Assembly: GCA_964640435.1 (NCBI GenBank)
Contig: CAZXFJ010000001.1
Location: forward strand, 64,542 to 128,541
Direction of reading: 5' to 3'
Source of the DNA: an uncultured Gammaproteobacteria bacterium
Lineage (GTDB): Bacteria > Patescibacteriota > Microgenomatia > Levybacterales > GWA1-39-11
DNA: 64,000 nt
Under the pieces are notes generated by a model. It saw nothing but the letters and a program-made list of their open reading frames with translations, did not search any database and was not told the origin of the DNA. Of the stretch, positions 13,483-61,180 are shown one piece after another (the first letter of the stretch is position 1; every line of letters begins with the position of its first letter). The position numbers were made by a program, and so were the translations under genes.

Positions 13483-15819
13483 ATGAATCTGCCTTTTTTA
13501 AAAAGCGAAAAGCCGCAAAAAAATTTCTTTTTATCTCTGTTGTACAAGCCATATAAGGTAAGTGCGATTTTATTTGAAGAGATAAATTCAAAACTTTTTA
13601 TTCTTTCCACTTCTGATCAAGATACTACGAAAAGTGCCGATGAGTTAACAGCTGATGAATTACTAAATATTTCAGATAAAGTTGTTAGTAGTGTTGAGCC
13701 AAGTCTTCCAGAAGGTGCAACAGTTGAAAAAACTATTTTTTCTGTTCCTTACGAGTGGGTTACGGATGGAAAAATTAGCGCTGAGTATCTTGAGAAGTTA
13801 AAAAAAGTTTGTCAGGATTTAGGACTTATTCCTGTGGGGTATTTAATTTCAATTGAAGCAATTATTTCCCATCTTGAGCATAAAGAGGGAGCCCCTGTTT
13901 CGGCTATTTTTGTTGAGGTTGCGGTCAAGAAAATGATTGTATATCTTGTCCGTGCTGGGAAAATCTTAGAGGTACATTCGGCTGACATTGAAAAAGGGGC
14001 ACTTCCCACAGCAGAATCCTTATTAAAACAAATAAATACCGTAGATGTTTTGCCTTCAAGAATTATTTTGCTGGATTATAAAAATGCAGCAGCAATGCAA
14101 CAGGACTTCATATCGCATACCTGGTCCAGTGATATTTCATTTCTTCATTTACCTCAGGTATTAGTTCTTGAAAAAGGTTTTGAGGACGAAGCGGCAGTTA
14201 ATGGGGTAGCTATACAAATGGACCTTGAGGTCTTACATGATACTTCCGCACTTAGGAAAGTAGAGAGCGAAAACATAAGTATCGGGGATAAAAAAGACAT
14301 TGAAGAACCTTTTGAAAAAGAAGAGGTTACTGAGGAAATTGAAGAGGCTTCAGCTGAAGAACTTGGTTTTGTTAAAGAGAGGGATGTCGCTGATGAAGAG
14401 ATAAAGATGGAAGAGGCTGAAGCTACTGGTGATGGGATTTCTGATGATGGCGAGCCTGTAATTCGAGAGGCAGGAAAAATAAACGAAGAGTCGAATATTT
14501 CTATAATTGAACCAAATGATCCCCCTGAATCTCAGGATTTTGATCCAGAAACAAAAAATGTTGCCGCAGGTATACCAATACTTTCATCATTACCCATGTT
14601 GTCAAATTTTTCTTTTCCAAGCACAATAAGAGAGATACAGAGGAAAATTAAAATACCTAATTTAAAATCTTTTTTTGCTGGAGGAAACAATTCGATGAAA
14701 ATAAAAGCTGCGATTGCATTAGGTGTAGTAATAGTTGCAATAGTTATTATCTCCGTTCTTTATTACAACGTAATTCTAAAAGCTGAAGTTTCTGTTTTTT
14801 CTGATAGAAAAACAGTAGATAAAAGTCAGGAAGTAACTTTTTCAGAAAACCCTTCTGACTCAAGCTCAATAAAAATAACTCTGAAAGAGCAAACAGAGAA
14901 AGGTGATGATACGAAGAATGCTAGTGGAACGAAAGATACTGGGGAGACAGCAAAGGGGAGTATTGTGGTTTATAACAAGACAGAAAGTGAGAAATCATTT
15001 CCTAAAGGAACTGTGATAGTTGGCCCAAATAGTCTTGAATTTGAAACTCAAAGTGACATTAAAATTGCCTCAACCAGTGCATTCTCAACAAGTCTTTCAT
15101 CGGCAAGTGTTAAGGTCGAGGCATCAAAGTTCGGTAAAGAATATAATCTTCCTTCAGGATCTAATTTCACAATTAAAGGTTCATCCTCAAGTAACTATAT
15201 TGCTAAAAATTCAGAAGCCTTGACTGGTGGTACTAAGAAAACAACCACTGTTGTTTCGCAAAAAGATTTAGATCAACTACTAACGCAAGTTGAAGAAAAG
15301 CTTGAGAAGAATGCGATTGAGGCAGTTAAACAGCAAATAGGTTCATCGGGGGATGTAATTCCTCAAGCACTTTCTGTTGACGTTGTTGAGAAAAACTACA
15401 CTAAAAAAGTTGGAGCAGAGAGTGGAAGTGTTGGGATTTCTGCCGAGGTTAGATATTCCATAGGAAGTTATAGTCGGGATGATATTCAAAAAGTTGTTGA
15501 TTCATTGTCTTCAGGAGATATACCTGGAACATATAAGATTAATATGGATAATTCAAAAATTGAAGTGGTCGATGTAAAAGTAGATAATGACAATAATGCC
15601 TCAGCAACTCTTAAGGTCAATGCAACTTACGAGCCGGAAATTGATAGTGCAAAATTGGCAACAGAGCTTAAAGGAAACGGTGAATCAAAAGCTATCGAAA
15701 AAATAAAAAGTATAAATGGGGTTACAGATGTTGTCATAAAGTTTTCAAGAAAAATTCCATTCTTCCCTAATATGCTGCCTGCTAATAGTAAAAACATAGA
15801 CGTACAGGTTAAGAAATAA
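13483..15819 (+). CDS. Hypothetical bitopic protein: N-terminal FtsA/PilM-like (actin-fold/SHS2-like) cytoplasmic region, acidic linker, central TM helix, Ser/Thr-rich extracytoplasmic domain
   Basis: N-terminal pattern resembles FtsA/PilM domain 1C/2A, but the glycine-rich ATP loop is degenerate. Single TM (AAIALGVVIVAIVIISVLYY) near residue 410. S/T-rich C-terminal half. Confidence 0.4.
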   Translation: MNLPFLKSEKPQKNFFLSLLYKPYKVSAILFEEINSKLFILSTSDQDTTKSADELTADELLNISDKVVSSVEPSLPEGATVEKTIFSVPYEWVTDGKISAEYLEKLKKVCQDLGLIPVGYLISIEAIISHLEHKEGAPVSAIFVEVAVKKMIVYLVRAGKILEVHSADIEKGALPTAESLLKQINTVDVLPSRIILLDYKNAAAMQQDFISHTWSSDISFLHLPQVLVLEKGFEDEAAVNGVAIQMDLEVLHDTSALRKVESENISIGDKKDIEEPFEKEEVTEEIEEASAEELGFVKERDVADEEIKMEEAEATGDGISDDGEPVIREAGKINEESNISIIEPNDPPESQDFDPETKNVAAGIPILSSLPMLSNFSFPSTIREIQRKIKIPNLKSFFAGGNNSMKIKAAIALGVVIVAIVIISVLYYNVILKAEVSVFSDRKTVDKSQEVTFSENPSDSSSIKITLKEQTEKGDDTKNASGTKDTGETAKGSIVVYNKTESEKSFPKGTVIVGPNSLEFETQSDIKIASTSAFSTSLSSASVKVEASKFGKEYNLPSGSNFTIKGSSSSNYIAKNSEALTGGTKKTTTVVSQKDLDQLLTQVEEKLEKNAIEAVKQQIGSSGDVIPQALSVDVVEKNYTKKVGAESGSVGISAEVRYSIGSYSRDDIQKVVDSLSSGDIPGTYKINMDNSKIEVVDVKVDNDNNASATLKVNATYEPEIDSAKLATELKGNGESKAIEKIKSINGVTDVVIKFSRKIPFFPNMLPANSKNIDVQVKK

Positions 15820-15820
15820 A

Positions 15821-16540
15821 ATGACTTATTATGAAAAAGGCGCAAAAGCGAGCCGAAAAAAATACGTTAAAATCCTTGGTAGTTTTTTTATAATTTTTGG
15901 AATCCTATTTTTTGGGTATTTTTTCTTTCCACTACTTTCCTACCAAGTTTTTTTAGCTAATGCATCAGAAGGGGATATTGAAGTTCCAATTCCTAAATAT
16001 CTAGTTGCAAAGAAAACGGGTAATATTTCAGATCTTATTTCAGAAAGAATTACATCGCTTACGACAAATTTTAATGATGCTCGTAATTGGTATCCAGATG
16101 TTCAAATTGCAAAACAAGAAGAAAGAAAAGTCGATAAGTATTCTCTATCCATACCAAAGTTAAAAATAGAAAATGCAGAAGTATCAACAACTGATTATGA
16201 TTTAGCAAATCATCTAGTTCAATACTTTGGCACAGCGATACCAGGTGAACCAGGTACAGCAATTATTTTTGGTCATTCAACAATTCCTGCCTGGTTTGAT
16301 CCTAAAAATTACAAAACAATTTTTGCAACATTGCACACTCTTAAGGTGGGTGATGAGTTTCAGGCGACAGTTGATGGAAAAACATATAACTATAAAATCT
16401 TCTCCATTGAAATTACAACACCAGAAGATACTAATATGTTTTCTCAGAGCTTTGATCATTCATACATAACAATTGTCACATGTACACCACCTGGAACTAT
16501 CTGGAAAAGACTTGTTGTGAGAGCAGCAATGGAAGAATAA
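15821..16540 (+). CDS. Sortase-family transpeptidase
   Basis: N-terminal TM anchor. Catalytic triad context IFGHS ... TIVTCTP ... KRLVVRA. Start is 2 nt after the upstream stop. Confidence 0.8.
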   Translation: MTYYEKGAKASRKKYVKILGSFFIIFGILFFGYFFFPLLSYQVFLANASEGDIEVPIPKYLVAKKTGNISDLISERITSLTTNFNDARNWYPDVQIAKQEERKVDKYSLSIPKLKIENAEVSTTDYDLANHLVQYFGTAIPGEPGTAIIFGHSTIPAWFDPKNYKTIFATLHTLKVGDEFQATVDGKTYNYKIFSIEITTPEDTNMFSQSFDHSYITIVTCTPPGTIWKRLVVRAAMEE

Positions 16541-35961: not shown

Positions 35962-37146
35962 ATGCCAAGAATCAAACTGTCCGAATTTCGGGCAAAAACT
36001 ATTGTTGCAGACTATTTAGGCACCGATTATACCGGAATTTCTTTTGATGCAGATTCTGACGGCGTATCAAAGCTTGATGAAACAGTGAAGCCAGATGCTC
36101 GATACGTTGTAAAAGTTGATCAAGGGATAAAAAAGCGTTTTAAACAAGGTTTAATTAAACTTGATGTAACTGGAGTTGATCAGATAATGGATGCATTATC
36201 AGATCTTCGTAAAAAAGGATTTAACCATTTTTTAATTGAAGAGCTTGTCCCACATGAGGACCATGAGGAGCGATATCTAGCACTCGAGCGCACAGATAAG
36301 GGAATTGTTATTCATTATTCACTTCATGGAGGAGTTGAGATTGAGTCTCATCAGTCAGATGTTAAAACAGCAATTTTAAAAGATTCAGAAGAGGTAAGAA
36401 GAATTGCTGAGGAGATTGATCTAAATCCAGATACTCTCGAAAAAATAGTTGAGCTTTTTGATATTAATTATTTTTCATTCTTAGAGATAAACCCACTCGT
36501 TATTTCTTTTAAGAATCCATACTTTTTAGATATTGCTTCAGAAGTAGATTCTGCAGCAGAATTCTTTGTTGATACGTGGTCGCTTGATGACATCCGTAAT
36601 GCAAAACGTAACTTAACAGAAGAAGAAATAAATGTTAGAAAGTTATCAGAAAAAAGTTCTTCATCTCTTTCTTTAACTGTTCTAAATCCAAATGGTTCTA
36701 TTTTCATGTTACTATCTGGTGGAGGAATAAGCGTGGCACTTGCAGATGAAGTAAAGAACTTGGGTCTTGGTCATGAGCTAGCAAATTATGGAGAATATTC
36801 TGGAAACCCAACTGAAGAAGAAACATACATATATACTCAAAATATCTTATCTCTTCTTCTAAAAAGTACAGCAACAAAAAAAGTTCTTGTTATAGGTGGA
36901 GGAGTTGCAAACTTTACAGATGTTCGCAAAACATTTAAGGGAGTAATTCGAGCGTTATCTGAAGTTGCTGATAAGTTGCAAGAGCAAAATGTTAAAGTCT
37001 TTGTTCGTCGTGGAGGTCCAAATCAGGAAGAGGGTCTTGCTCAGATGAAAAAGTTTTTAGAGAACAATAATATTTTAGGATCTGTGGATGGACCAAGTAT
37101 GGTTGTTTCAGAAGTAGTTGATCAGGCTATAAAAACAATAAATTAA
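35962..37146 (+). CDS. aclB: ATP-citrate lyase beta subunit (ATP-grasp, SucC-like; AclB)
   Basis: Near-collinear with the N-terminal part of eukaryotic ACLY and bacterial AclB. Matching blocks: VVKVDQGIKKRFKQGLIKLDV, FLEINPLVI, LTVLNPNGSIFMLLSGGGISV, ELANYGEYSGNPTEEETY, VLVIGGGVANFTDVRKTFKGVIRAL, VFVRRGGPNQEEGL. Confidence 0.85.
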   Translation: MPRIKLSEFRAKTIVADYLGTDYTGISFDADSDGVSKLDETVKPDARYVVKVDQGIKKRFKQGLIKLDVTGVDQIMDALSDLRKKGFNHFLIEELVPHEDHEERYLALERTDKGIVIHYSLHGGVEIESHQSDVKTAILKDSEEVRRIAEEIDLNPDTLEKIVELFDINYFSFLEINPLVISFKNPYFLDIASEVDSAAEFFVDTWSLDDIRNAKRNLTEEEINVRKLSEKSSSSLSLTVLNPNGSIFMLLSGGGISVALADEVKNLGLGHELANYGEYSGNPTEEETYIYTQNILSLLLKSTATKKVLVIGGGVANFTDVRKTFKGVIRALSEVADKLQEQNVKVFVRRGGPNQEEGLAQMKKFLENNNILGSVDGPSMVVSEVVDQAIKTIN

Positions 37147-37147
37147 T

Positions 37148-38944
37148 ATGTTTGACGTTGAAAAAATAATAAATTCAGATCAGAAGGTTTTGGCCATTGG
37201 GTCATACCCTTCAATAATTCAAGCTATGCTTGATTTTGATTTCCTCGCAGGAAAGAAAAATCCAAGTGTTGTGGGAATTGTTGCCTCGGGCCGCCGTGGT
37301 GAGCGATATTTCTTTGGTAAAAAAGAAATAAGAATTCCTGTATATTCTTCTGCAAAAAAATTACCTGAAAAACTAAAAGAAGAAATAACATACATCATTA
37401 ATCTTGGATCAGGCCGCCGTGTCTTAACTTCAACAACAGAGGCTTTAGAAAATCTACCAAATGTAGTTGGTGGATCAGTATTTGCAGAAGATACTCCAGA
37501 AAAACATGCAATTGATTTAAAAGCATATATTGAAGCAAGGAAAATCTTTTTAACAGGACCTGCGTCTGTTGGGTTTTTAATTCCAGGAATATTTAAGCTT
37601 GGCGCTATTGGTGGAGTAACACACAAGCAGTTAATTGACGCAAAATTATTTGAACGAGGAAATGTTGCAGTTTTCTCTGCTTCGGGTGGAACTACAAATG
37701 AGTTAATTAATATTCTCGCACAGCACAATAAAAAGATTTCTTTTGCCCTTCATTTTGGAGGAGATAGGTTCCCTATGGTTCCACCAAAAGAGGCATTTTT
37801 AGCAGCACAAGCAGATCCTGCAACAACTCACATTGTATATTTTGGTGAACTTGGTGGAATCGATGAATATGCAGTCTGTCAACTAATTCAGGAAGGAAAA
37901 TTGACAAAACCAATTATAGTTTATATTGCTGGAGTAGTTGCTGAGGTTTTCCCAGAATCTCCTCAATTTGGTCACGCAAAAGCTATGGCATCAACCGCAC
38001 GTGAAACAGCTCGTGCAAAGCGCGATGCATTAAAAGCCGCTAGTGCTCAGGTTGCAGAAAGTTTTGCAGAATTTGTTGCTCTTATGAGCAATATTCCATC
38101 GCACTCAACCACTGAAGAGAAAAAGCACAATGATATAATTACGCAACATATGGAAAACAGAAAGCATGCTATTATTGCTACCAGTATTTCAAAAGATGAA
38201 GACGGACAGGTAAAAGTTTTGGGACAAGATTTACTAAAGTTTGCAGAAGATCACTCTTTTGGTTATATAGTTGTCTCAATGTTTTTGGGTAAACAGATAA
38301 AAAGCCGCGAGCTCGAAGACTATATTAATTTTATCTTGAAGCTTCTTGTTGATCATGGACCTTATGTTTCAGGAGCAGTAAACACTATTGTTACCTCTCG
38401 CGCTGGTCGTGATTTAGTTTCGTCTCTTTCCGCAGGACTTCTAACAGTTGGACCAAGATTTGGAGGAGCAATTAATGAAGCAGCTGCTAATTGGATTGAG
38501 GGAGTTGAGAGTGGAGAATCTGCAGAAAAATTTGTTGAAAGCTTTGCTGCTAAGAAAAAATATGTTTTAGGAATTGGACATAAAAAATACAGAGTAGATA
38601 TGCCTGATCCAAGAGTTACTGCAATTAAAAAATATACTGAAGGACTTGATGCAAAGTACACAAAGTTTGCGTTAAGTGTAGAAAAAGTTACAGTTGCTAA
38701 AAAAGGCAATCTAATTCTAAATGTTGATGGTGCAATAGCCGCAGTTTTGCTTGATATTTTAAGTGAAAAAGAAGGATATACAGTAGACGAACTTAAAGAG
38801 CTTGTTGAAACAGAATTCTTTAATGGATTATTCGTCTTATCTCGCTCTGTTGGATTTATTTCACATTTCTTAGATCAAAAAAGAATGGATGAGGGACTGT
38901 TTAGACTAGAAGAAGAGCATGTAGCCGATGCCTCTGGTGAATAG
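37148..38944 (+). CDS. aclA: ATP-citrate lyase alpha subunit (CoA-binding/SucD-like domain + citryl-CoA lyase, citrate-synthase-like domain; AclA)
   Basis: Matching blocks: MLDFDF, TGPASVG, GIFKLGAIGG, GKLTKPIIVY, catalytic His context QFGHAKAMAS, LVDHGPYVSGAVNTIVTSRAGRDLVSSLSAGLLTVGPRFGGA, GIGHKKYRVDMPDPRV, KGNLILNVDG, NGLFVLSRSVGFISHFLDQKRM. Confidence 0.85.
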   Translation: MFDVEKIINSDQKVLAIGSYPSIIQAMLDFDFLAGKKNPSVVGIVASGRRGERYFFGKKEIRIPVYSSAKKLPEKLKEEITYIINLGSGRRVLTSTTEALENLPNVVGGSVFAEDTPEKHAIDLKAYIEARKIFLTGPASVGFLIPGIFKLGAIGGVTHKQLIDAKLFERGNVAVFSASGGTTNELINILAQHNKKISFALHFGGDRFPMVPPKEAFLAAQADPATTHIVYFGELGGIDEYAVCQLIQEGKLTKPIIVYIAGVVAEVFPESPQFGHAKAMASTARETARAKRDALKAASAQVAESFAEFVALMSNIPSHSTTEEKKHNDIITQHMENRKHAIIATSISKDEDGQVKVLGQDLLKFAEDHSFGYIVVSMFLGKQIKSRELEDYINFILKLLVDHGPYVSGAVNTIVTSRAGRDLVSSLSAGLLTVGPRFGGAINEAAANWIEGVESGESAEKFVESFAAKKKYVLGIGHKKYRVDMPDPRVTAIKKYTEGLDAKYTKFALSVEKVTVAKKGNLILNVDGAIAAVLLDILSEKEGYTVDELKELVETEFFNGLFVLSRSVGFISHFLDQKRMDEGLFRLEEEHVADASGE

Positions 38945-48592: not shown

Positions 48593-48904
48593 ATGGCACA
48601 AAAAGGAAGAATTAGAGTAAAACTTAAGAGTTATGATTCAAGGATCATAGATTCAACGTGTCAACAAATCCTTGATACAGCTATAAGAACCGGTGCAAAA
48701 GTCATCGGTCCTATTCCATTACCTACAAAAAGAAGCGTTTTTGTAGTAAACAAATCTCCTTTTATTGATAAAGATGCTCGTGAGCACTTCCAGCTTAAAA
48801 CTCACAAAAGACTTGTTGATATCATGAATCCAACTGATAAAACAATTGAATCTTTAATTCATTTAGATCTTCCAGCGGGAGTAGATGTAGAGATTAAGAT
48901 GTAA
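48593..48904 (+). CDS. rpsJ: 30S ribosomal protein S10
   Basis: [21 protein letters not shown]... S10 family. 103 aa. Confidence 0.95.
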
Positions 48905-49322
48905 TAAGCTCTTTTACGAGCGTGTGAGTTTCAATTTTTTTCAATTCTTCAAGCATTTGTTCGCTTATATTGTAATTTTTCATTTCATCAAAGCTGATCC
49001 AAGCAAAATCTGAGTGCTCTTCTGATAATTGTACGTCATAGCTACCTATTACTTCACATAAGAAATCTATTTGAACATAATGAGTGTCGCGACCCGTATT
49101 TTCATACATCCAAACGGCAAGTGGTGAGCCTATTTTAACATCGAGTCCTGCTTCTTCTTTTATCTCGCGAGACGCACCAGATATTGGATCTTCCATGTAT
49201 TCGAGCTTTCCTCCGGGAATTTCCCATGATCCAGGCAAAAATGAGTCATTATCAGATCTTTTCATGAGTAAAAACTTATTATTATGGACAATAAAACCGC
49301 CGGTAACTACCTTTTGATTCAT
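48894..49322 (-). CDS. NUDIX hydrolase
   Basis: Nudix box GGKLEYMEDPISGASREIKEEAGL (Gx5Ex7REUxEExGU). The 3' end overlaps the rpsJ stop by 11 nt on the opposite strand. Confidence 0.8.
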   Translation of the reverse strand: MNQKVVTGGFIVHNNKFLLMKRSDNDSFLPGSWEIPGGKLEYMEDPISGASREIKEEAGLDVKIGSPLAVWMYENTGRDTHYVQIDFLCEVIGSYDVQLSEEHSDFAWISFDEMKNYNISEQMLEELKKIETHTLVKELITS

Positions 49323-55191: not shown

Positions 55192-55305
55192 ATGAAAGTA
55201 CAAGCTTCAATTAAAAAAAGATGTTTGAAATGTAAAATTATTAAGCGCCGAGGCGTGCTGTTTGTTATTTGTGAAAATCCAAAGCACAAACAACGCCAAG
55301 GATAA
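55192..55305 (+). CDS. rpmJ: 50S ribosomal protein L36 (37 aa), not in the ORF track. Located between rplX and rplE instead of after infA.
   Basis: [37 protein letters not shown], hand-translated from 55192-55305. Canonical L36 Zn-ribbon. Confidence 0.9.
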
Positions 55306-55334
55306 TTGATAAATCGAGGCTAATAAAGTATAAT
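55306..55334 (+). promoter_or_regulatory. Candidate internal promoter TTGATA-17-TATAAT upstream of rplE
   Basis: Hexamers at 55306-55311 and 55329-55334, in the 54-nt gap between rpmJ and rplE. Confidence 0.4.
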
Positions 55335-55359: not shown

Positions 55360-56100
55360 ATGGGAGACTTTAAAAAACAATTTGAAACAGAGACAGTTAA
55401 GAAGCTACAAGAGGAGCTAGGGATTAAAAATCCTATGGCAGTTCCTCATGTGGTGAAAATTATTGTTAACACATCAATGAAAGACTTTTTAACTGACAAA
55501 AGAAACATTGAAAAAATGCGCGAAGATATGGTTTTGATAACCGGACAAATGCCAAAAACAAATAAGGCAAGGATTTCTGTTGCAACATTTAAGCTTCGTG
55601 AGGGTGATGAGATTGGAATGTCAGCAACACTTCGTGGAAAGCGTATGTATGACTTTTTGGAAAAGCTTGTTAAAATAGTTTTCCCAAGAGTTAAAGACTT
55701 TAATGGAGTAAGTGCAAAGTCTTTTGACGGACGTGGAAACTTGAGTATTGGATTTACAGAAAACACAGTATTTTCCGAAATTGATCCTGGAAAAGTAGAC
55801 AAGATTCGTTCTTTGCAAGTTGTTATCGTTACAAATGCAAAAGAAGATGCAAAAGCAAAAGCACTTTTAACAGCAATCGGACTTCCTTTTAAGAAGGGGA
55901 GGCAAACTAATATGGCTAAGAAATCAAACATAGTTAAAAATTTATATACTAAACCAAAGTTTTCGACTAGAAAGAAAAACATTTGTATGTTGTGTGGAAG
56001 GTCACGTGGTTATATGAGATTATTTGGTCTTTGTAGAATTTGTTTCAGAGAAAGAGCGTTGAAAGGAGAGCTTCCAGGAGTTAAAAAAGCTTCTTGGTAA
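55360..56100 (+). CDS. rplE: 50S ribosomal protein L5 continuing in-frame, without a stop codon, into the type-Z S14 coding sequence (246-aa ORF)
   Basis: L5 sequence runs to ...AIGLPFKK. Then GRQTN is encoded by an SD-like AAGGGGAGG plus spacer. Then the S14 ATG at 55912, all in one frame. Confidence 0.85.
55912..56100 (+). CDS. rpsZ: 30S ribosomal protein S14 type Z (zinc-binding, 62 aa), in-frame with upstream L5
   Basis: [10 protein letters not shown]...[38 protein letters not shown]. CxxC...CxxC Zn motif. Own SD GGGGAGG 8 nt upstream. Confidence 0.85.
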
Positions 56101-56106
56101 TAAATT

Positions 56107-56493
56107 ATGTATACAATTGGTGACTTTTTAATACAAGTAAAAAACGGATACAGAGCTAATAAAAAGGAAATTGTTTATCCTCGCTCAAACGTCGTTGTAT
56201 CTTTGGCAAAAATTCTTGAAAAAGAAGGATTTGTTTCAAAGGTTAGCGAGAAAGAAGCTGATGGTAAAAAAACATTGCAAATAAGCCTTAAATATGAAGG
56301 ACGCGTGCCTGCAATTAGTGATATAAGACTTATTTCAAAACCATCAGTTCACCTTTATGCTGGTAAATTAAAAGTTAAAAAAGCTATGGGAAGACATGGA
56401 GTGGGAATTGTTTCAACAAGCTCTGGAATGATGACATCAGCTGACGCAGGTAAAAAAGGAGTAGGTGGAGAATTAATCTGCCAAATTTATTAA
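56107..56493 (+). CDS. rpsH: 30S ribosomal protein S8
   Basis: S8 family; position after S14. Confidence 0.95.
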   Translation: MYTIGDFLIQVKNGYRANKKEIVYPRSNVVVSLAKILEKEGFVSKVSEKEADGKKTLQISLKYEGRVPAISDIRLISKPSVHLYAGKLKVKKAMGRHGVGIVSTSSGMMTSADAGKKGVGGELICQIY

Positions 56494-56494
56494 T

Positions 56495-57043
56495 ATGAGT
56501 AATATTGCAAAACAACCAGTTAAAGTTGAAGATGGAGTTACGGTTAATTTTTCTGACGGACAAGTAGTAGTTGTTGGTCCAAAAGGAAATCTTAGCTTAA
56601 AAGTTCCAGCTGGAATTAAAGTTACAGTTGAGGATGGAGTTGCTAAAATTGTAAGCGAGTCAGATGCACGAGAGCTTACAAAGTTTGCTGGATTAACACG
56701 TGCTTCAGTTGCAAATATGGTAAAAGGAGTAACGGCTGGTTTTCAGAAGCAACTTGAGCTTACCGGAGTCGGATACAGAGCTCGTGTTGATGGAGTAAAT
56801 CTTGTTTTAAACGTTGGATATGCAACACCTATGACTGTAGTTCCTGTTGAAGGTGTTACAATATCAGTTGCTGAAAATGTAATAACTGTAGCTGGTAGCA
56901 ATAAACAACTTGTAGGAGATGTTGCTGCAAATATTCGTGCAGTAAGACCACCAGATCCATACAAGGGTAAAGGAATAAAATATGTTGGTGAGAAATTAAG
57001 ACGTAAAGTTGGAAAAGCAGCAAAAGCTGTTGGAGGAAAATAA
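56495..57043 (+). CDS. rplF: 50S ribosomal protein L6
   Basis: L6 family two-domain sequence. Confidence 0.95.
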   Translation: MSNIAKQPVKVEDGVTVNFSDGQVVVVGPKGNLSLKVPAGIKVTVEDGVAKIVSESDARELTKFAGLTRASVANMVKGVTAGFQKQLELTGVGYRARVDGVNLVLNVGYATPMTVVPVEGVTISVAENVITVAGSNKQLVGDVAANIRAVRPPDPYKGKGIKYVGEKLRRKVGKAAKAVGGK

Positions 57044-57400
57044 ATGCGCGAAATAAGAGTTAAATTAAAAAGACAAAAACAAAGAATTGATAGAACAAGA
57101 AATAAAATCTTGGTTAACAAAACTTTACCAAGGCTTACAGTTTTCCGTTCTAACAAAAATATGTATGCTCAAATTATTGATGATGCTAAAGGTATGACTT
57201 TAGTAGCCGTTAATGGAGCTGATGTTGCAGATGCAAAAGCAAATAAAACTGCAAAAGCAACAGAGCTCGGTCGAAAGATTGCGGAAAAAGCAGTTGCCGC
57301 AAAGATTAAAAATGTTGTTTTTGATCGTGGATCATACAGATATCACGGACGAGTAAAAGCGCTAGCTGATGCTGCTCGAGAAGGAGGCTTAGTTTTCTAA
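57044..57400 (+). CDS. rplR: 50S ribosomal protein L18
   Basis: L18 family ([19 protein letters not shown]). Confidence 0.9.
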
Positions 57401-61165: not shown

Positions 61166-61180
61166 TTTTTTTTCACAAAT

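Follow-up and report, generated by a model that had tools for sequence, protein, structure and literature searches.

An apparent L5-S14 fusion in a Levybacteria-like genome traces to a single missing G ahead of the L5 stop codon

Introduction

Can ribosomal proteins L5 (uL5) and S14 (uS14) be made as one polypeptide? The question is raised by a reading frame within the ribosomal-protein gene cluster of the 64,000-nt stretch of DNA analyzed here (the window), which runs through the whole of L5 and on into a type-Z S14. In the ribosome, uL5 sits on the central protuberance of the 50S subunit and uS14 is buried in the head of the 30S subunit, and a linker of five residues is not expected to let both proteins occupy their own sites. 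The original prediction offered three explanations for the arrangement: a genuine fusion protein, a fusion accompanied by independent initiation of S14, or an error that had substituted the stop codon of L5. These are weighed below against near-identical contigs from the same population, the corresponding loci of related species, and other reading frames that span the two genes.

Results

Reading frame and proteins at the junction

The ORF list, the Pfam domains and a direct reading of the DNA agree that L5 and type-Z S14 occupy one 246-aa ORF with no intervening stop codon, as the original prediction had stated (Table 1). From position 55879 the sequence reads GGA CTT CCT TTT AAG AAG GGG AGG CAA ACT AAT ATG GCT AAG AAA, and the ORF carries the domains Ribosomal_L5 (24–80), Ribosomal_L5_C (85–177) and Ribosomal_S14 (195–245), all scoring far above their curated cut-offs. 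Since the single frame is a deterministic reading of the sequence, chance is not at issue. An antisense ORF of 178 aa (55446–55982), lying wholly within L5, was regarded as a shadow ORF, its host gene being AT-rich.

Table 1. Features at the L5-S14 junction, in window coordinates.
Feature	Position	Strand	Remarks
Fused ORF, L5 + GRQTN + type-Z S14	55360..56100	+	246 aa; ORF list and Pfam domains
rplE (uL5), missing G restored	55360..55910	+	183 aa, ending GLPFKKGEAN, stop TAA 55908-55910
G4 tract, lesion site	55896..55899	+	G5 in the same-population junction-spanning contigs read
GGAGG, Shine-Dalgarno-like motif for S14	55898..55902	+	9 nt 5' of the ATG; function inferred from consensus
TAA, real L5 stop	55908..55910	+	Present in the window, one base out of frame; TAA-T-ATG arrangement with S14
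rpsN/rpsZ, type-Z uS14 (short, four-cysteine)	55912..56100	+	62 aa + stop; ATG 55912-55914

Both halves of the ORF are readily assigned. The uL5 domain models were matched over their full length (PF00281, 51.1 bits against a cut-off of 34.9; PF00673, 109.6 bits against 27.8), and the L5 part scored 219.9 bits (cut-off 186) against NCBIfam NF000585, the model for 50S ribosomal protein L5, covering profile positions 4–180 of 181. The S14 part scored 95.9 bits (cut-off 77) over the entire profile (1–61 of 61) of NF005974, type Z 30S ribosomal protein S14, which is also the name given by NCBI to its cluster mates. At 62 aa, and with four cysteines arranged as CMLC...CRIC, it has the length (about 61 aa) and the CxxC...CxxC pattern of the short, zinc-binding form. 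Each protein is also found on its own: an identical 62-aa S14 (P0121) was called separately in Logan contigs, and the top match of the fused protein in a database of 5.8 billion clusters is a separate 183-aa L5 (P0001), which matches the L5 part at 100% identity and is on record on six Logan per-run contigs. By function and membership, the locus is a typical spc-operon rplE-rpsZ pair.

A one-base difference in a G tract

In the DNA alignment of the junction, the sole difference between the window (AAGAA-GGGGAGG) and the Logan contigs (AAGAAGGGGGAGG) is one G. With five G residues the sequence is read as AAG AAG GGG GAG GCA AAC TAA T ATG, so that L5 ends in GEAN and the ATG of S14 begins one base after the TAA; restoring a single base thus separates L5, ending in GEAN-TAA, from S14. 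The apparent linker, GRQTN, arises when GGG GAG GCA AAC TAA T (the L5 tail, its stop codon and the spacer base) is read with a -1 shift. The G tract lies 12 nt upstream of the TAA, which is itself intact, and overlaps the Shine-Dalgarno region of S14, the GGAGG being preserved whether four or five G residues are present. The two versions differ in homopolymer length only, and adding the base brings back both the conserved end of L5 and its stop. Judged from these alignments, what the window carries is a private 1-nt deletion in a homopolymer, G5 to G4. Loss of the G moves the last four codons of L5 (GEAN, with its TAA) into the frame of S14, whereupon L5 is read as GRQTN and runs on into the MAKKS... 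of S14.

Distribution of the deletion

Four distinct contigs that span the junction, from runs SRR14271353, -54, -59 and -70, all read GGGGG while being 99.87–99.97% identical to the window. Among them, L003 carries five G residues despite matching the window without a single substitution over 3,265 bp. In a collection of 15 billion proteins, the exact 246-aa protein occurs once, on an NCBI contig 182,222 bp long from which the window presumably comes, and it is listed as a member within an S14 cluster. The gene-position index holds no gene with the fused product, and no match emerged when JGI metagenome contigs were scanned for a pattern permitting either G4 or G5.

The quality of the surrounding consensus was assessed by tiling the window with 26 Logan contigs of the same run series. 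The aligned bases number 178,051 and span positions 1–62123, or 97% of the window. Identity ranged from 99.5 to 100.000%, and some runs yielded contigs that match the window at 100.000% over 14 kb. SNPs occur at 40 positions, and the G at 55896 is the single indel. Every homopolymer run of at least 5 nt in the covered part has the same length in the Logan contigs (598/598, including 56 runs of at least 7 nt). The ORF map is one of tightly packed, intact genes, with rpoB and rpoC at full length. The loss of the G stands alone. A noisy long-read assembly was considered as the source of the window and was rejected, because no further indel occurs in 62 kb and all long genes are intact.

One further contig from the series breaks off close to the junction. 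L086 (SRR14271365), which matches the window from 55911 to 57129, starts 1 nt before the ATG of S14, with the G tract 15 nt upstream of its first base, and is the sole hint of something odd at the junction in another sample. A break at this place might be read as the sign of a G4/G5 bubble in the assembly graph; this was rejected, since the contig starts 15 nt past the point where such a bubble is expected to close and the run gives short contigs generally, making the break uninformative. It is probably due to low coverage.

L5 termini and gene spacing in related genomes

The original prediction assumed that L5 normally stops directly after PFKK. This does not hold in the clade, where L5 continues for one to six residues beyond that motif and has a final N in 8 of the 10 homologs read. 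The tails that precede the stop codon in other species include GEQN (P0002), GEASN (P0136) and GETRN (P0005), as well as NQTQN, GAATSN, EGSN, VEASN and IKAKN, and the reading GRQTN has no counterpart among the homologs read. An ENA contig of 87% identity reads ATG CCT TTT AAA AAA GGA GAA GTA AAC TAA T ATG, giving GEVN followed by the stop. The possibility that G5 is the error and G4 the truth was therefore rejected, as only the G5 frame yields the conserved GE-x-N-stop tail. Related genomes do have the stop codon after PFKK that the original prediction had proposed to look for, but it lies four codons later (GEAN-TAA) and does not replace the AAG.

The L5 stop and the S14 start were located in 80 loci of GTDB species representatives that encode relatives of the query. 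No genome of the same species is among the GTDB species representatives, where the best L5 identity is 79%. The stop lies upstream of the start in 80/80 loci, and none of the 80 is fused. Nine of them have the 1-nt spacing of the window, and in 10 more the spacing is between -1 and 5 nt. Two separate genes with a TAA-T-ATG junction are the state of the population and the ancestral state.

Other reading frames spanning L5 and S14

When the fused protein was compared with 1.84 billion cluster representatives using HMMER, the matches were mostly plain L5, and about 10 ORFs span L5 and S14. Four of these (P0145, P0154, P0179 and P0267) are clearly frameshifted and contain garbled stretches, P0145 continuing into a scrambled S8. 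In P0138 the ORF reads through the spacer, while P0155 has a W that is maybe a recoded TGA, so that its fusion may stem from a recoded stop. The roughly 10 spanning ORFs include no conserved fused L5-S14 family, and the literature searches made here turned up no report of an rplE-rpsN fusion.

Gene neighborhood

The genes around the junction form the usual S10/spc/alpha ribosomal-protein cluster. The window has a G+C content of 36%, its nearest named relatives are MAGs of Candidatus Levybacteria and Patescibacteria, and it belongs to a Levybacteria-like (CPR/Patescibacteria) genome. Within the cluster, rpmJ (L36, 37 aa; 55192–55305, + strand; TIGR01022, 75 bits) is found between the genes for L24 and L5 and is absent from its usual place between infA and the gene for S13, where only 15 nt remain (61166–61180). 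L36 directly precedes L5 in about 30 Levybacteria-like species representatives. This order was not seen in any of the more remote loci retrieved from CPR and other phyla, and the placement of L36 looks like a clade-level rearrangement. Between rpmJ and rplE there is a strong sigma-70-like match, TTGATA and TATAAT separated by 17 nt (11/12; 55306–55334, + strand), which may represent an internal promoter or, the DNA being AT-rich, have arisen by chance. The S10 operon is split between rpsJ (S10) and rplC (L3) by a gene for a NUDIX hydrolase (48894–49322, - strand), followed by a gap of 209 nt before L3. The ORFs for S5 and L15 (57402–58299, + strand) adjoin or overlap, with no L30 gene between them; CPR bacteria are known to have lost L30.

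Two observations were made outside the ribosomal-protein cluster. A pair of adjacent genes (35962–37146 and 37148–38944, + strand) code for proteins with a Citrate_bind domain and with Ligase_CoA and Citrate_synt domains, respectively, as recorded by Pfam on the identical Logan genes. These are domains of the subunits of ATP-citrate lyase or of citryl-CoA synthetase/lyase, and they point to an unexpected metabolism for a small genome of CPR type. Nearer the start of the window, a gene for a 778-aa protein (13483–15819, + strand), with only a weak match to Baseplate_J, lies directly upstream of a sortase gene (15821–16540, + strand), and its product may be a sortase substrate or surface protein.

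Discussion

We favor an isolated consensus or assembly error of one assembly as the cause of the missing G, and put the probability of this at about 0.6. The per-run assemblies from the same series and, by identity, the same population give G5, which argues that G4 is peculiar to one assembly; it was seen in no other, and the gene that it affects is essential. Under an error of this kind, arising in assembly or polishing, the base would be present in the DNA of the organism and no fusion protein would be made. The error part of the third original explanation is in keeping with this, while the substitution part fails, the lesion being a 1-nt deletion in G5 with the TAA intact. Against an artefact stands the isolation of the event, as the error would have struck once, in a tract of only five bases, in a window that is otherwise free of indels. 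De Bruijn-graph assemblers normally retain the better-covered path, and G4 in the 182-kb contig could represent a real allele, predominant in the reads from which the MAG was built.

A real G4 would be a very recent, private mutation, due to slippage and confined to a single strain or sample of the Levybacteria-like population, neutral to deleterious in effect and not an adaptation, and this we regard as a possible explanation, to be held tentatively. In its favor, freedom from any other indel against 178 kb of independent alignments makes the consensus look reliable, the population is polymorphic (40 SNP positions in 62 kb), and the ribosome-binding site and start codon of S14 are unaffected by the deletion. 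The break in L086, 1 nt before the S14 ATG, could reflect heterogeneity at the site, yet it falls 15 nt past the point where a G4/G5 bubble should end. Opposed to it are the lack of any other assembly with G4, the spanning contigs read being all G5, including one that is otherwise identical over 3.3 kb; the six Logan contigs that encode a separate L5; and the absence of the fused product from the gene-position index. Moreover, all of the L5 in such cells would bear a dangling zinc-ribbon domain, which is likely to be costly.

Were G4 real, ribosomes would miss the TAA and make a 246-aa L5-S14 chain, and free S14 would be produced from the GGAGG, the 9-nt spacer and the ATG. With the ribosome-binding site intact, the supply of S14 need not collapse, and its initiation would proceed without the coupling of termination to reinitiation that the TAA-T-ATG arrangement suggests. 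The fusion would then behave as an L5 with a dangling extra domain and would probably be deleterious. Dual expression, the second of the original explanations, is thus a fair description of the G4 allele if it exists in cells; as an evolved feature it is unsupported, since a separate L5 is found on six contigs and 80/80 relatives are unfused. It is rather doubtful that G4 is a real recent variant carried by part of the population, giving a uL5 with a complete C-terminal uS14 zinc ribbon and a free S14 from the internal start. If it were true, the variant would test, in nature, the tolerance of the central protuberance of a reduced CPR ribosome for additional mass, and would be a minor curiosity concerning extended uL5 proteins, not a new ribosomal architecture.

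The genuine fusion protein of the original prediction, taken as an evolved feature, found no support in the population contigs read, from which it is absent, or in the related species (80/80 without it). A selected L5-S14 fusion characteristic of the lineage, for example a tether between the subunits at the protein level or a device for co-assembly, would draw on a reading frame seen in one window only and on the handful of other single ORFs with L5 and S14 among the 1.84 billion cluster representatives. Those ORFs are unrelated singletons with differing junctions, the arrangement is conserved neither within the same population nor across the 80 related species, and the literature searches gave no report of it. 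The architecture is not common to the orthologues, and the linker is not a sequence of its own, GRQTN being simply what GEAN, the stop and the spacer become when read out of frame. We consider such a fusion very improbable, and an evolved fusion is effectively excluded. Programmed recoding, in which G4 would be the true sequence and ribosomes would shift frame on AAG-AAG-GGG-AGG to end L5 normally, in the manner of prfB or dnaX, is more improbable again, to the point of being negligible. The homopolymer does stand beside an SD-like GGAGG, superficially resembling the stimulator of the prfB +1 frameshift, but L5 terminates at a plain in-frame stop in the orthologues and in those near-identical contigs that were read, and a need for frameshifting is not conserved; because the orthologues require none, a programmed frameshift is excluded.

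Among known systems, one parallel is Ribo-T, an engineered tethered ribosome in which the rRNAs are linked through designed tethers. It shares with the present locus the idea of covalently linked, working subunits; a 5-residue peptide between uL5 and uS14 differs in having no evidence of selection behind it and in being geometrically implausible. Another likeness is to the ribosomal-protein 'fusions' created by gene calling, of which P0073 and P0075, from related Levybacteria-like contigs (L103, 532–1230, and L105, 293–988), are examples that were listed with both L36 and L5 domains. These L36-L5 fusions were rejected as gene-calling artefacts, an in-frame stop after KQRQG having been read as Q. 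Their DNA thus has an in-frame stop, whereas the window truly has none at its junction.

The pseudo-fusions and frameshifted genes produced by homopolymer errors in draft genomes and MAGs also resemble the locus, with the same single-base change of length and a product unique to one record. Such errors are usually numerous and favor the longest runs, whereas the window has one, in a 5-base run; as it is the sole indel in 62 kb, and 56 runs of at least 7 nt are correct, there is still room for a real mutation. Left as it stands, the record would seed a spurious 'L5-S14 fusion protein' in protein databases, which is a matter of annotation hygiene, and could lead astray those who search for fused domains or study the ribosomes of CPR bacteria.

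The system to which the locus belongs is the rplE-rpsN/rpsZ pair of the spc operon. The window differs from it in lacking one G, which puts the stop out of frame, and in the L36 gene between those for L24 and L5, a trait of the clade. The gene order L14-L24-(L36)-L5-S14-S8-L6-L18-S5-L15-SecY is the same and, once the G is restored, so is the junction, TAA-T-ATG with GGAGG upstream, matching the similarly tight spacing in relatives that is associated with translational coupling.
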